In this document: positions 7,794 to 43,176 of the stretch, piece after piece
Numbering within the stretch: position 1 is the stretch's first letter
Layout of the letters: the number at the start of each line of letters is the position of its first letter
Sequence record: PZ445554.1
Direction: 5' to 3' (one strand)
Source: a phage
Length of the DNA: 64,000 nucleotides
The notes under the pieces: generated by a model
What the model was told of the DNA's origin: nothing
The model's database searches: none
What the model saw: the letters and a program-made list of their open reading frames with translations, nothing else
Program-made: the position numbers and the translations under genes

Positions 7794-8394
7794 GGTGTCT
7801 TTTCCATCCTAATTTAGCTGCTTTTGAAACCAGTTCTTTAATTTTTCCTTTTGTCCATTCAGGACCAGGAGGTTCATGACATAACATTTGCTTAACTCCG
7901 TTATTATACCATTTTTTACCTTTATTATGTGATGAAGCTTTAAATTTATTTGACCTTCCTTTTGCATAACCTTCTGGAATATAAGGCAAAAAGGCAGATT
8001 TTCCTGTTAATGGATCATGTGAATGTATATTTCCTTTACAATTATGAGAACCATATAATGGATGATTTTGTCCTTTATTATCTCTTCCAAATGAACCTTT
8101 TGGAGCAGCATATGACATATTAAAGAATAATGGATTTTTAACTGCATCATGCAATCGTTGATAATATAACTCGCATTTAATAGCTTCTTCACGCGTATCA
8201 AATTCAGCTAAAATGCATGAATCAAATAAGTGAGGATTATCTGAAAGCTCTTTATTATAAATTTTCTTATACTTTTTAGATAAAACTGAACCATGATATC
8301 CAGCTAAATGCCTATCTAAAGACGTAGATCCAATATAAAAAGGAGGAAGTTTATCTCCACTATATATTGTTAAATAAGTTATATATTTTTTCAT
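7771..8394 (-). CDS. GIY-YIG family endonuclease-like protein (seg-like)
   Basis: 207 aa; N-terminal TIYSG...FYIGST...R..H followed by FDSCILAEF...E..YYQRL, which aligns with the I-TevI/Seg catalytic domain as I recall it; its 3' end overlaps the gene 47 start by 23 nt. Confidence 0.65.
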   Translation of the reverse strand: MKKYITYLTIYSGDKLPPFYIGSTSLDRHLAGYHGSVLSKKYKKIYNKELSDNPHLFDSCILAEFDTREEAIKCELYYQRLHDAVKNPLFFNMSYAAPKGSFGRDNKGQNHPLYGSHNCKGNIHSHDPLTGKSAFLPYIPEGYAKGRSNKFKASSHNKGKKWYNNGVKQMLCHEPPGPEWTKGKIKELVSKAAKLGWKRHHENTKLG

Positions 8395-8531
8395 ATATCA
8401 AGAACCGTCATTGAAATGCAAAATAAAATTATTGAAATAAATCCATCTGGAGTGCTAAAGAACCCAATCCAACATGCTCTAGTGAATAGATAAAATGCAA
8501 GAAAAAGTATCACATATCCAAGAAATATCAT
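8391..8531 (-). CDS. Small hydrophobic peptide (46 aa, predicted membrane)
   Basis: Below ORF-track cut-off; ATG with GGAG RBS 9 nt upstream; MIFLGYVILFLAFYLFTRACWIGFF...; stop overlaps the ATG of the downstream ORF (ATGA). Confidence 0.4.
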   Translation of the reverse strand: MIFLGYVILFLAFYLFTRACWIGFFSTPDGFISIILFCISMTVLDI

Positions 8532-8554
8532 TATATCAAACTCCGTATAAAGCT

Positions 8555-8572
8555 AAAGGGCCGAAGCCCTTT
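8555..8572 (-). terminator. Stem-loop (UUCG tetraloop) after a-gt
   Basis: AAAGGGC-UUCG-GCCCUUU on the minus strand. Confidence 0.5.
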
Positions 8573-9773
8573 ATTTTGTAATAATGTCAAACTGTTCTTT
8601 AAAGCAGAAGCTTGAATCTTGATGCTGATACAAAAATTCATATGCTTTTTCTCGCTCACGGTCATAAAGAGCTCGGTCAGATGACAGTTCTTTAATACGT
8701 TCAAATGTTGATTCCATGTCATTTTCATCAAACCAAATGATACCGCTATCATGCGAGGTCAAAGGAGTATTATCAACACGGAATTTTAAATTTTCGCCAG
8801 TAGATTTCCAAAATACCGGAATTGTTCCACATGCACCAAGCTCGAGATGAGTATATTCTAAAGAACGTTGTAGATATTTTTTATCCAACTTACTCAACTG
8901 ATAACCAAAACCGGATTTACTCATGCGTTCAAGCATTTCGCTATTTACATAACGGTCAAGAATTTGCGTTGGCAAATTAGGAGCAATTTTAATTTGGTCT
9001 ACTTGATGAAGACGATAATACTCGTATGGAATTCCTTTTTCTTTAATAGGAATGAACGCTGGAGAACGTTCCAGACCTTCCATAATAGTACTTAGTCCTG
9101 CAGGTTTAAGATGTTTTTCGTGAAAATCAAACATCTGATAAAAACCTTTCCATGTAGTCGTACGACCAATCCAACGATTGATATTCATGTTAATTTCAGA
9201 AACATCTTTCCAGTAGGTTGACCGAACCTTCGCAATATCCATAGGAGGCTGAAAGTTATATACTGTCGGCGCTTCTTCAATATCATCAAATAAAGAAACT
9301 GTTTCAGGATACCACTCTTTCATCAGAACTTTATTAAAATCACCATTATCAGAATGACTAAAAATAACATCAGCTCGACGAACAGTTTCTTCTAATCCCA
9401 AATTTCGGCGCAAAGAAAGAGAAGAGTGGTCATGTTGATAAACTACAACACGAACCGAAGGTTTAATGTTATCAATAATTTTTTTATAGTTATTAATAGT
9501 GTCTTCTTCAACTGAAGTAGCAGGAACTGAATTGATAATTAGAATATCACAATCATTTACCAGCTTAAGTGTTTTATCGTATTCTTTTGCCAATAAAACC
9601 GGAATTGAAAATGATTTATAATCATGTGCACAGTTACGAGTAAATGATTTATCTTTAGCATAAACCAAAGTTACTTCATGACCATTTTTAATAAACCAAT
9701 CACGTTGCTCAAGAGAAAATTTAGTTACACCACAACCTTCAAGACCCCGAGCCATAAAAATACATACTTTCAT
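8571..9773 (-). CDS. a-gt: DNA alpha-glucosyltransferase
   Basis: 400 aa; sequence recognised as T4 alpha-glucosyltransferase with several substitutions. Confidence 0.85.
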   Translation of the reverse strand: MKVCIFMARGLEGCGVTKFSLEQRDWFIKNGHEVTLVYAKDKSFTRNCAHDYKSFSIPVLLAKEYDKTLKLVNDCDILIINSVPATSVEEDTINNYKKIIDNIKPSVRVVVYQHDHSSLSLRRNLGLEETVRRADVIFSHSDNGDFNKVLMKEWYPETVSLFDDIEEAPTVYNFQPPMDIAKVRSTYWKDVSEINMNINRWIGRTTTWKGFYQMFDFHEKHLKPAGLSTIMEGLERSPAFIPIKEKGIPYEYYRLHQVDQIKIAPNLPTQILDRYVNSEMLERMSKSGFGYQLSKLDKKYLQRSLEYTHLELGACGTIPVFWKSTGENLKFRVDNTPLTSHDSGIIWFDENDMESTFERIKELSSDRALYDREREKAYEFLYQHQDSSFCFKEQFDIITK

Positions 9774-40475: not shown

Positions 40476-40751
40476 TTATTTCATATTATTGAAATATTCT
40501 TCTGCAATTTCGTCGTTATCATGGTAAACTTTAGAAGACAGTTTAACATAACCTTCAGCAGTGAACATGTTAATCACAACCTTTACAGTATACCACTGAC
40601 CGTCTTCATTACCCATTACTGCATAAGTTTCAAACATCGGATGGTCAGGACCGATAACTTTAATATCATTCACCGTACGACCAAAATCTTCTGAAACACA
40701 TTTCATAAAGAAGTTGAACAGTTCACCGTAATTATCCATTTCATTCTCCAA
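40476..40751 (-). CDS. Hypothetical protein
   Basis: 91 aa ORF directly downstream of an early-promoter cassette. Confidence 0.55.
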   Translation of the reverse strand: MENEMDNYGELFNFFMKCVSEDFGRTVNDIKVIGPDHPMFETYAVMGNEDGQWYTVKVVINMFTAEGYVKLSSKVYHDNDEIAEEYFNNMK

Positions 40752-40782
40752 GTTGTTTTCTGTATCAGCAGTTGATAGTTGT

Positions 40783-40812
40783 ATAGTACCATGGAAGAAC
40801 AGGGATGTAAAC
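40783..40812 (-). promoter_or_regulatory. Early promoter cassette
   Basis: GTTTAC-N18-TACTAT with conserved downstream block. Confidence 0.6.
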
Positions 40813-40922
40813 AGTTTTGTGAAAAAATTTTTAAAAAGTTTTAGGGAATTCTAGGGTCAGGAGGGGCAATTAAAAGGTAGGATAATATATTATAAAGGGT
40901 ATAAACTAAATGATGCCTAGAG

Positions 40923-40938
40923 AGGCCCGAAAAGGCCT
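40923..40938 (-). terminator. Stem-loop, second of twin terminators
   Basis: AGGCC loop GGCCU. Confidence 0.45.
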
Positions 40939-40950
40939 AGATACCAAAAA

Positions 40951-40972
40951 GCCCCAACCTTTCGGTCGGGGC
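40951..40972 (-). terminator. Rho-independent terminator (GAAA tetraloop plus U-run)
   Basis: Minus strand GCCCCGACC-GAAA-GGUUGGGGC followed by UUUUUGG. Confidence 0.65.
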
Positions 40973-40979
40973 TAAGCCT

Positions 40980-41255
40980 TGCGGCAACCTTGTCGGGGTT
41001 CCACCTGCTAAGGCAAGTGTTTGTACGAAACGCCGGGACTTGAACCCGGTTATTAAGTAGTTGACGCTACTCAATATTTTTAAAAGGCCATATCTCGACC
41101 ATATCCGAACGTTCCGTCAAAAACGCTACTCGGCTTACGGCAAAGATATTTCCTCGAATCGATAATTCGGTGCGCCGTTTCTGCTGTGATGTAAGAGGGC
41201 ATCAATAAACGCAAAGATTATTAACGCAATTCCTTACTCAGGGAACATCAGTCCG
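40980..41255 (-). ncRNA. Putative small stable RNA region (tRNA-like T-arm motif), ending at twin terminators
   Basis: No convincing ORF; GGTTCAAGTCCCGG T-arm-like element on the minus strand; two consecutive hairpins follow; position next to the tRNA cluster. Confidence 0.3.
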
Positions 41256-41260
41256 ACGAC

Positions 41261-41815
41261 TTACCGGTAGCGACCCGGTTTCTCATTTGGTATTTCAAAT
41301 TGTGTAGATTTAGTATCTAATTTTTTAACTATGGAACTTATGTCATGAAAGAAAAACCATTCACCATTTATATGGTCCTGATTATAAATGCTGTGCATAT
41401 ATTTTTCAAGTTCTACTGCATCCTGGGAATATCTAAATGATACTATTTTAAAACTTTTAAACGGTGAAAATGTATTTGCTGTTATAACTCTAACATCAGG
41501 TTCTATACTTCTTCCTATTTTATAATAATTAGGATTTGTAGTATCTACCATTATGTATACGAAAGCCTGTCGATAGCTTTTTTCTATATCAAATTCATCT
41601 TTAAATTTCAAAAGATTTAGGGCGGCAGTCCTACAAAATACTTTCCATTTTGACAAGCGTTTGGCTTTAGTCATAGAAAAGAATTTTTTCTTATCTGTTA
41701 TTTTAAGAAAAGCAACATTTTCAATTAGTTCTTGTGTTATTTCAAAATTACCATGGTATATTAATCCAGCTTTTATAGCCAAATTAATTTGGTCCCAGTC
41801 TACATCACTTCTCAT
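41261..41815 (-). CDS. T5orf172-type (GIY-YIG-like fold) domain protein inside the tRNA cluster
   Basis: 184 aa; FVYIMVDTTNPNYYKIGRS...R...ELEKYMHSIYNQDHINGEWFFF matches the T5orf172/MUG113 domain pattern as I recall it. Confidence 0.55.
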   Translation of the reverse strand: MRSDVDWDQINLAIKAGLIYHGNFEITQELIENVAFLKITDKKKFFSMTKAKRLSKWKVFCRTAALNLLKFKDEFDIEKSYRQAFVYIMVDTTNPNYYKIGRSIEPDVRVITANTFSPFKSFKIVSFRYSQDAVELEKYMHSIYNQDHINGEWFFFHDISSIVKKLDTKSTQFEIPNEKPGRYR

Positions 41816-41836
41816 AATATTATTCTCTCAATAATT

Positions 41837-41913
41837 TGGCCAGGGTGAAAGGATTCTAACCTTTAACCTGCGGTTTAGAGGACCGCTACTCTATACAATT
41901 GAGTTACACCCCG
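41837..41913 (-). tRNA. tRNA-Arg (anticodon UCU)
   Basis: Clean cloverleaf on minus strand, anticodon loop CCUCUAA, encoded CCA. Confidence 0.8.
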
Positions 41914-42039
41914 TAATTAGTTCACAGCAATACCTACTCCAACAATCAAGATGTCTTCACACGAAATTAAGAGAAGAGTGATCAGTTCAACCCCTATAAT
42001 CGCGTCAAGTAGATATTAATGTGACAACTGTCACAAGTT

Positions 42040-42114
42040 TGGCGGACGTGATAGGATTCGAACCTATAACCAATCGCTTAACAGGCGATCGCTCTGCCAT
42101 TGAGCTACACATCC
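42040..42114 (-). tRNA. tRNA-Asn (anticodon GUU)
   Basis: Cloverleaf GGAUGUG...GUCCGCCA, anticodon loop CUGUUAA, T-loop UUCGAAU. Confidence 0.75.
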
Positions 42115-42118
42115 AAAT

Positions 42119-42205
42119 TGGTGGGGAGTGGTGGAGTCGAACCACCCGAGTCGCAATGACAATGAATTTACAGTCCACACCGCTACCTCTACGGGATAAC
42201 TCCCC
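42119..42205 (-). tRNA. tRNA-Tyr (anticodon GUA), long variable arm
   Basis: Type II tRNA, anticodon loop CUGUAAA, overall layout like bacterial tRNA-Tyr. Confidence 0.7.
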
Positions 42206-42218
42206 CTAATTCGTAATT

Positions 42219-42293
42219 TGGTGACCCTGGGTGGAATTGAACCACCATCTGGCGATTATGAGTCGCTTGCTTGAACCTTCCAGCTACAGGGCC
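42219..42293 (-). tRNA. tRNA with anticodon CAU (Ile2 or Met)
   Basis: Acceptor GGCCCUG/CAGGGUC, anticodon loop CUCAUAA, encoded CCA. Confidence 0.6.
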
Positions 42294-42294
42294 T

Positions 42295-42370
42295 TGGTGC
42301 TGATTGACGGAATCGAACCGCCGACGTCCTCATTACAAGTGAGGTGCTCTACCTACTGAGCTAAATCAGC
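42295..42370 (-). tRNA. tRNA-Thr (anticodon UGU)
   Basis: Acceptor GCUGAUU/AAUCAGC, anticodon loop CUUGUAA. Confidence 0.8.
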
Positions 42371-42375
42371 AAAAC

Positions 42376-42465
42376 TGGCGGAGGCGATAGGATTTGAACC
42401 TATGAGTCGCCGGAGCGACTGCCGGTTTTCAAGACCGGTGCATTAAACCACTCTGCCACGCCTCC
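42376..42465 (-). tRNA. tRNA-Ser (anticodon UGA), long variable arm
   Basis: Acceptor GGAGGCG/CGCCUCC, anticodon loop CUUGAAA, 17-nt variable arm. Confidence 0.8.
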
Positions 42466-42467
42466 AG

Positions 42468-42541
42468 TCTCCGTGGCAGGATTTGAACCTACGACATTCT
42501 GCTCCCAAAGCAGACGCTCTACCAAACTGAGCTACACGGAG
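42468..42541 (-). tRNA. tRNA-Pro (anticodon UGG), CCA not encoded
   Basis: Acceptor CUCCGUG/CACGGAG, anticodon loop UUUGGGA. Confidence 0.75.
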
Positions 42542-42551
42542 TAAATTAAAT

Positions 42552-42625
<74 letters not shown>

Positions 42626-42630
42626 AAATT

Positions 42631-42717
42631 TGGTGCGAGAAGTGGGACTCGAACCCACAAGGAAATCATTCCGCAGCATTTTAAGTGCTGTGCCTTTACC
42701 AATTTGACCATTCTCGC
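42631..42717 (-). tRNA. tRNA-Leu (anticodon UAA), long variable arm
   Basis: Acceptor GCGAGAA/UUCUCGC, anticodon loop CUUAAAA. Confidence 0.8.
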
Positions 42718-42718
42718 G

Positions 42719-42791
42719 CTGGGAATAAAGGACTCGAACCTTTGCATCCTGGAATCAAAATCCAGTGCCTTACCAACTTGGCTAATTCCCA
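42719..42791 (-). tRNA. tRNA-Gln (anticodon UUG), CCA not encoded
   Basis: Acceptor UGGGAAU/AUUCCCA, anticodon loop UUUUGAU; abuts tRNA-Leu. Confidence 0.75.
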
Positions 42792-42860
42792 ATTATTAAC
42801 AAAGGCTCTCTAACAAGAACCCTTGATGATAGAGGGTATTAATCAGTGCGGTATGAGTTA

Positions 42861-42885
42861 ATAATAACAAATAATTCTTAAAGCA
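42861..42885 (-). promoter_or_regulatory. Middle promoter upstream of the tRNA cluster
   Basis: Minus strand TATGCTTTA, 12-nt spacer, TATTAT; about 60 nt upstream of tRNA-Gln. Confidence 0.45.
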
Positions 42886-42888
42886 TAT

Positions 42889-43176
42889 TTACCATTTATG
42901 CTGATACATATTTACGATGCATTCAAGACCCAAAGGATTCTTGAAAATATCATATTCAAGAGGACCTTTTTCTGTTTCAATAAAGAAATCAAAATTTACT
43001 GTGTTAAATTTACGGTCTTCCTTCACTAATTTAACTTGAGAAGATGAACGGTCAACATAAACCTTTTCAACTTCAAAACATGTTAAAATGCCATAATCAT
43101 CAATCAAGGCTTTAGCTGCTTCTTGATCATATTTATATCCATTTTCAATGGATGATACTTTAGCATAAAGAATCAT
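42889..43176 (-). CDS. Hypothetical protein
   Basis: 95 aa ORF upstream of the tRNA cluster. Confidence 0.5.
   Translation of the reverse strand: MILYAKVSSIENGYKYDQEAAKALIDDYGILTCFEVEKVYVDRSSSQVKLVKEDRKFNTVNFDFFIETEKGPLEYDIFKNPLGLECIVNMYQHKW

Follow-up and report, generated by a model that had tools for sequence, protein, structure and literature searches.

An apparent counterpart of the phage T4 rnaD-rnaC stable RNA module, with a tRNA-like RNA C, at the distal end of a T4-like tRNA cluster

What is specified by a stretch of phage DNA that follows a T5orf172-like open reading frame (ORF), seems to encode no protein, and yet holds what looks like part of a tRNA? The question is raised by positions 40923-41260 of sequence record PZ445554.1, the 64,000-nucleotide stretch of phage DNA that was analysed here and that we call the window. 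An initial annotation, made from the sequence alone, placed a small stable RNA locus with twin terminators in this interval and suggested that it may be the equivalent of the two stable RNAs that T4 encodes next to its tRNA genes. The species 1 and species 2 RNAs of T4 have been known and sequenced since the 1970s and are annotated in T4 reference records. In what follows, coordinates are those of the window unless another record is named, and (-) or (+) denotes the strand.

Identity and layout of the locus

The window comes from a T4-like phage (Tequatrovirus) whose tRNA cluster lies on the minus strand. ARAGORN and Rfam together place ten tRNA genes from 42791 down to 41837 (-), and the last tRNA of the cluster is tRNA-Arg(UCU), at 41913-41837 (-). 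A megablast comparison of 40800-41900 with 50,697 phage records gave matches in 764 of them. Among annotated phage genomes, the match to T4-type records covers window positions 40800-41293 at 97% identity, and the annotations that lie under it in these genomes are rnaC, rnaD, and tRNA-Arg, with both non-coding RNAs directly 3′ of tRNA-Arg. In RB55 (KM607002; species Tequatrovirus T4), the coding strand carries, in this order, tRNA-Arg, rnaD ("species II RNA", 118 nt), and rnaC (139 nt); the annotation of AJ880101 reads "rnaC: species I RNA".

The counterparts in the window are readily delimited. rnaD (species 2 RNA) spans 41286-41169 (-) and agrees with the rnaD annotated in RB55/T4 at 118/118 positions. 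rnaC (species 1 RNA) spans 41162-41024 (-), is likewise 139 nt long, and agrees with T4 rnaC (KM607002) at 136/139. Between the annotated gene ends lies the 6-nt spacer GAAUUA, 41168-41163 (-), which is conserved at 5-6 of 6 bases wherever rnaD is also present and is presumably cut out in processing. The homology to both T4 genes is full-length. rnaC shares its strand with the tRNA cluster, whose distal end it occupies, and is followed by the operon terminator; the order tRNA-Arg, rnaD, rnaC is kept despite a 555-bp ORF in between.

By sequence, position, and structure the locus belongs to the T4 rnaC and rnaD families, and to this extent the finding is one that was already known. Since the two genes are nearly identical to their T4 namesakes, the earlier interpretation of the interval as an equivalent of T4's stable RNAs was correct, and the comparison with the T4 species that it had recommended settles on annotated rnaD and rnaC. 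Its boundary was slightly off: the RNA locus begins at 41286 and not at 41260, 26 nt further upstream, inside the 3′ end of the ORF. We hold it to be almost certain that the region is an orthologue of the T4 rnaD-rnaC stable non-coding RNA module, promoter-distal in the tRNA operon and followed by a trailer and a terminator. The level of identity could partly stem from recent gene conversion near homing-endonuclease genes, and not from selection.

Structure of RNA C

RNA C is predicted to fold as a four-arm, tRNA-like cloverleaf, with a minimum free energy of -50.2 kcal/mol (z = -4.54), in agreement with the RNAalifold consensus of 15 distinct homologues. The acceptor-like stem joins 41161-41155 with 41032-41026 (-), that is, CG(A/G)UUCG with CGUU(U/C)CG, through five Watson-Crick pairs and two conserved U·U pairs; one of its pairs is compensatory, an A-U to G-C change, and one further compensatory pair is found in the T arm. 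The place of the D arm is taken by a long arm of about 70 nt, 41154-41086 (-), and that of the anticodon arm by a 10-bp arm, 41076-41051 (-), closed by the 6-nt loop CGUCAA. The T arm, at 41049-41033 (-), is canonical and runs straight into the 3′ strand of the acceptor stem: it consists of 5 bp and a 7-nt UUCRANU loop, stacked on the 7-position acceptor stem. Its motif GGTTCAAGTCCCGG, at 41046-41033 (-), is the tRNA-like T-arm noted in the initial annotation. The RNA ends in an invariant tail, GUACAA, which starts at 41026 and extends 3 nt beyond the annotated 3′ end.

In the alignments of RNA C, 98.4% of cells form standard pairs and 20/47 pairs are compensatory (20-25 pairs overall). None of the 500 shuffles reaches the observed values (0/500), and partners slid along the alignment pair at about 40%.

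RNA C is tRNA-like, yet it is not a tRNA. ARAGORN reports no tRNA at 41024-41286, and the Rfam tRNA model (RF00005) has no match there at E <= 10; the full cloverleaf that this model describes, with a D arm, a 7-nt anticodon loop, and a score above threshold, is not what RNA C presents. On part of two rnaC homologues ARAGORN does call an over-long "tRNA" of 95-96 nt, at 8491-8585 (-) of L017 and at 7816-7911 (+) of L007; these "tRNA-Met" or "tRNA-Phe" calls are artefacts. One GenBank record labels rnaC "tRNA-OTHER".

A candidate loop-loop contact

The apical loop of the long arm carries UUGACG, 41120-41115 (-), a hexamer exactly complementary to the CGUCAA loop, 41066-41061 (-), in the anticodon-like arm. 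Both hexamers are kept even in PEi20, NM4.3, Ursula, Kosakonia 305, and Melville, whose long arm is otherwise unrelated. Only in the clade of Marfa (Klebsiella) and the metagenomic locus L102 do they differ, and there they read UUGGCG and CGCCAA, an exchange of A-U for G-C at the same helix position. Counted as a pseudoknot helix, the two hexamers pair at 6/6 positions in 16/16 sequences, and the chance that two random hexamers of such composition are complementary is about 2.7e-4. This arrangement suggests a kissing-loop contact between the two loops of RNA C. Because the support consists of one evolutionary event plus invariance, we treat the kissing helix as a lead and not as proven. Equally, the contact might form between two molecules, as a dimer, or the two loops might each be bound by protein.

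Structure of RNA D

The single-sequence fold of RNA D is unexceptional (z = -1.43). In an alignment of 15 sequences, 97.4% of cells are paired and 5/23 pairs are compensatory, so that the conservation of structure among relatives, which the initial annotation had named as a check, is seen in both RNAs. The consensus of the 5′ hairpin is (A/G)CCGG-GUCGCUA-CCGG(U/C), and a 7-bp closing helix stops 1 nt short of the annotated 3′ end. The inner stem carries a variable central hairpin, 41239-41189 (-), of which close relatives have at least three unrelated versions (alignment A3). The types are those of T4, of T2/AV112, and of EcWhh-1/L012, and the flanking 47 nt and 20 nt are nearly invariant. The centre of RNA D, exchanged as a whole at least three times among these relatives, behaves like a swappable module.

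A search for base pairing between RNA D and RNA C found no complementary stretch of 7 nt or more. A hammerhead ribozyme in rnaD (CUGAUG ... GAAAC) was also considered; on inspection the order of the stems fits no hammerhead topology, and the Rfam hammerhead models have no match over rnaD at E <= 10.

Conservation and distribution of the module

With a more sensitive BLAST, the 263-nt unit of rnaD, spacer, and rnaC matches 797 phage records. In Tequatrovirus, Mosigvirus, and metagenomic relatives, the parts conserved at 96-100% are the 5′ half and the 3′ end of rnaD, the spacer, rnaC, the trailer, and the terminator. The surroundings behave otherwise: the DNA upstream of rnaD differs in every compared locus except that of teqskov, and the DNA just beyond the U-run of the terminator is unrelated in all compared loci but T4 and T2.

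Each gene also occurs without the other. rnaC stands alone in Kagamiyamavirus EcS1, where its neighbours are tRNA-Phe and tRNA-Trp, and in Karamvirus AS6, Gelderlandvirus Melville, a Proteus phage, and L017, where it lies between tRNA-Trp and tRNA-Gly; its spacers within these tRNA arrays are 3-8 nt long. It is found, too, in Moonvirus, Kanagawavirus, Marfavirus, and Edwardsiella phage PEi20, and altogether it persists in at least nine genera, with compensatory changes in every helix. rnaD alone is carried by a Yersinia phage and by Dhakavirus. Two pattern scans of IMG/VR converged on about 15 loci. The metagenome scan gave 87 loci, made up of about 76 chance tRNA matches, 10 near-identical copies of rnaC, and L102, which is the sole informative diverged rnaC homologue from it.

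These data bear on the possibility that the tRNA operon merely carries a decayed tRNA pseudogene (RNA C) and a junk spacer (RNA D) as passengers. Such an origin would account for an RNA in which a T arm and an acceptor-like stem are present while the D arm, a 7-nt anticodon loop, and the CCA are missing, and which neither ARAGORN nor the Rfam tRNA model scores as a tRNA. It would also agree with the viability of T4 tRNA-region deletions on laboratory hosts. However, rnaC stays 96-99% identical across Tequatrovirus and Mosigvirus while the rnaD centre and both flanks diverge or are replaced, and its persistence in so many genera with compensated helices is not what one expects of a passenger. 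Moreover, the most invariant parts of RNA C, namely the two loops, the U·U pairs, and the GUACAA tail, are all non-tRNA features. Since a pseudogene would not keep them, we regard decay from a tRNA as very improbable.

Coding potential and RNA families

Two minus-strand ORFs can be drawn mechanically through the region, at 41214-41080 and 41074-40937 (-); both start with TTG, and they are 44 and 45 aa long. The first has an in-frame stop in T4 and another in PEi20. In diverged relatives, CAA or AAU stands in place of the TTG of the second, and the length differences among homologues are not multiples of three. By this comparison the region appears non-coding, with no conserved reading frame, which upholds the initial statement that it holds no credible ORF.

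One might still propose that one or two small proteins are made from this region, in line with the two mechanical ORFs and with the automated CDS annotations placed here in T2, teqskov, RB69, and others. Against this stand the TTG starts, the stops, the lost TTG, and the indels just described, as well as the fact that the substitutions are compensatory in RNA helices and that the T4 transcripts have been seen as stable RNAs (PMC9697503). A protein-coding locus is accordingly very improbable, more so than a tRNA pseudogene. A "hypothetical protein" CDS covers rnaC/rnaD in many records, and most records leave both RNAs unannotated.

The covariance-model search that had been suggested for the region returned no Rfam family over it, either at the gathering threshold for the whole window or at E <= 10 for 40700-42100. 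Matches below threshold were confined to mascRNA, on the T arm alone (15 bits against a threshold of 42.5), and anti-hemB (13.6 bits). Because Rfam has no family for rnaC or rnaD, automated pipelines miss the locus. Two other tRNA-related RNAs were considered and set aside. ARAGORN reports no tmRNA, nor does the region answer to the tmRNA model; the sole match to YrlA (Y-RNA-like), of 16.4 bits against a threshold of 69, falls over tRNA-Arg/tRNA-Asn, outside the region.

Trailer, terminator, and the second hairpin

RNA C is separated from the terminator by a 50-nt 3′ trailer, 41023-40974 (-), whose conservation is about equal to that of RNA C itself. In every locus with both rnaD and rnaC (Tequatrovirus, Mosigvirus, and metagenomic relatives were compared), 45-50 of its 50 positions are identical, and in all but one the figure is 48-50/50. 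It contains a 7-bp hairpin and a small hairpin with a GNRA loop (GCAA; GCGA in RB69). Together with the terminator it folds with z = -4.03, and it is missing where rnaC sits inside tRNA arrays. The trailer may provide a processing or terminator context.

The terminator hairpin, AGCCCCGACC-GAAA-GGTTGGGGCT followed by TTTT, lies at 40973-40945 (-). The terminator scan returned it as the sole terminator-like site on the minus strand in 40700-42900, and its 10-bp, G+C-rich stem, GAAA loop, and U-run are those of an intrinsic terminator. Across the rnaD-plus-rnaC loci 23-29 of its 29 bases are kept, and the homology to most of them stops right after the U-run. We take 40973-40945 to be the predicted terminator of the tRNA/stable-RNA operon.

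The second hairpin, AGGCC-UUUUCG-GGCCU at 40938-40923 (-), has a different record. Its z is -0.54, with 55/200 shuffles folding as well; its stem is broken in T4 and T2, and the region is absent from RB69, AV112, and teqskov. It is probably non-functional as a terminator. As this hairpin has no U-run, is not significant, and is not conserved, the locus has only one terminator: of the twin terminators first proposed, the GAAA hairpin with its U-run holds and its neighbour has to be given up.

The nearest relative, teqskov (L002), is 100% identical to the window over rnaD and rnaC and diverges immediately past the terminator U-run, where it has an extra 474-bp CDS (L002 1683-2156) that is missing from the window at 40944 downward. 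Here, too, recombination has left a sharp boundary at the module's edge.

An inserted ORF at the tRNA-Arg/rnaD junction

The ORF upstream of the module, 41815-41261 (-), encodes 184 aa and matches PF13455 (MUG113; E = 2.7e-9) and PF10544 (T5orf172; E = 3.4e-6), both above the Pfam cut-offs. Its last 8 codons and stop are read from the first 26 nt of rnaD (41286-41261). Homology to T4 starts at 41293 with ATACCA, which are the last 6 nt of a T4-type tRNA-Arg and all that is left of it, and by alignment the tRNA-Arg(UCU) of the window is of another sequence type than that of T4. The ORF is flanked by CCAAAT on both sides, with junctions at about 41293 and about 41836. The MUG113/T5orf172 ORF is an insertion between tRNA-Arg and rnaD. 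It has relatives within the tRNA regions of T5-like phages and of T4-like phages of Klebsiella, one of which carries the annotation "putative homing endonuclease".

T2 and RB69 have ORFs at the same junction as well, different from this one, and AV112 and T4 have none; the junction is therefore an insertion hotspot. It repeatedly gains mobile ORFs whose C-termini are borrowed from rnaD. That the region should be a mere 3′ UTR and terminator of the mobile ORF, because it lies directly 3′ of that ORF and ends in a terminator, is hardly conceivable, as the module is present without a junction ORF in T4 and AV112 and behind different ORFs in T2 and RB69, the tail of the ORF is itself borrowed from rnaD, and where the ORF has homologues elsewhere, this sequence does not come after them.

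Within the ORF, at 41409-41381 (-), about 95 nt upstream of rnaD, there is a sigma-70-like promoter (TTGAAA, 17-nt spacer, TATAAT; 11/12 matches). With such a promoter, rnaD and rnaC could have regained transcription of their own once the ORF was inserted, but it is a lead only, since promoter-like sites in the region are no more numerous than in shuffled sequence. The T4 late promoter motif TATAAATA does not occur from rnaD to the start of the tRNA cluster; the nearest minus-strand copy is at 43137-43130, upstream of tRNA-Gln. Further up, the gap between tRNA-Asn and tRNA-Arg is 126 nt in the window (41914-42039 (-)) and 7 nt in T2 and AV112, and right after tRNA-Asn it contains a perfect palindrome, TGTGACA-AC-TGTCACA (about 42021-42036).

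Expression and possible function

RNase P processing of RNA C is described in the T4 literature of the 1970s-80s. As regards the module in the window, we propose that it is co-transcribed with the tRNAs at the distal end of their operon, in a transcript that here also runs through the inserted ORF, with the sigma-70-like promoter in the ORF perhaps adding transcription. RNA C would be released as a tRNA is, by an RNase P cut at the 5′ side of its acceptor-like stem, and the 3′ ends would result from termination at 40945 followed by exonucleolytic trimming as far as the stable closing helices. Since the ORF insertion has altered the upstream context, RNA D cannot be matured at its 5′ end in quite the way it is in T4, although ORFs stand at this junction in T2 and RB69 as well.

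T4 RNAC and RNAD have been seen by Northern blot and RNA-seq, as stable species of about 140 and 120 nt, and are classed as late RNAs (PMC9697503). Their roles were stated to be unknown in 2010 (PMC3014915), in 2022 (PMC9697503), and again in 2025 (PMC12685909). In the last of these studies, a convergent SNP in rnaD was the sole mutation common to all T4-like lines adapting to a semi-permissive E. coli strain (PMC12685909). A mutation shared during adaptation to a host hints at a host-dependent role. A literature search under the older names of the RNAs, the scope of which did not extend to the papers of the 1970s-80s, returned irrelevant papers only; PMC13454534, taken up as a mention of the T4 genes, proved to contain the strings "RNACS" and "RNADarkMatter".

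What, then, might the two RNAs do? The 6-bp contact of the long-arm loop with the loop in the anticodon position would lock the body of RNA C, and the latter loop, being held in contact, would therefore be unavailable for decoding. It is tempting to propose, albeit with low confidence, that RNA C mimics a tRNA without taking part in decoding, and that it binds or titrates a factor, of the host or the phage, by which tRNAs are recognised. RNA D, whose hairpin is lineage-specific and swappable, may have an action that depends on the host. Put together, RNA C would be a tRNA mimic sequestered by its kissing loops, matured by tRNA enzymes, and acting in trans as a decoy, with the RNA D hairpin tuning the system to different hosts; we think this composite picture unlikely, though decidedly less so than any of the alternatives to the T4 module weighed above. 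The decoy role is speculation; the target might be, e.g., a defence nuclease of the host that is directed at tRNAs, or an enzyme of processing or modification. If true, the decoy would provide two RNAs, orphans for 50 years, with a function and would add a new class of phage counter-defence RNA.

Whatever the function, the comparison singles out the RNA C cloverleaf, its complementary loops, the UACAA tail, and the two U·U pairs as targets for mutation. What it adds to the known identity of the locus is the cloverleaf backed by covariation, the candidate kissing loops, the conserved trailer, and the insertion hotspot; the classification is unchanged.

Comparison with known systems

As a rho-independent terminator, the first hairpin has nothing unusual about it, and it is the neighbouring hairpin that is without the defining U-run. 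The relation of RNA C to tRNA is of another kind. It shares with tRNAs the cloverleaf, the T stem set on an acceptor-like stem, and, in several genera, a gene position within tRNA arrays. Unlike a tRNA, it has an arm of about 70 nt in place of the D arm, an "anticodon" arm of 10 bp with a 6-nt loop, and two U·U pairs in the acceptor stem, and its 3′ tail is UACAA where that of a tRNA is NCCA. With the tRNA-like modules of other RNAs (the tmRNA domain, YrlA, and mascRNA), RNA C has a similar layout, and it matches neither the tmRNA nor the YrlA model.

Kissing complexes with fully paired loops of 6-7 nt are formed by TAR-TAR* and by RNA I/RNA II of ColE1. What RNA C has in common with them is two hairpin loops that are perfectly complementary, here over 6 nt. 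It differs from them in that both candidate loops lie in one molecule, a contact that in RNA C is read from sequence.

The closest of all known systems is that of T4 itself. rnaD is identical in the two phages and lies directly upstream of rnaC in both, with a 6-nt spacer of equal length. In T4, rnaD begins one nucleotide after tRNA-Arg, whereas in the window it is preceded by the 184-aa ORF and a different tRNA-Arg. T4 rnaC has the same strand, the same distal position in the tRNA cluster, and the same trailer and terminator as its counterpart in the window, from which it differs at three positions, one of them in the long arm and the other two in the T loop, where UUCGAAU becomes UUCAAGU.
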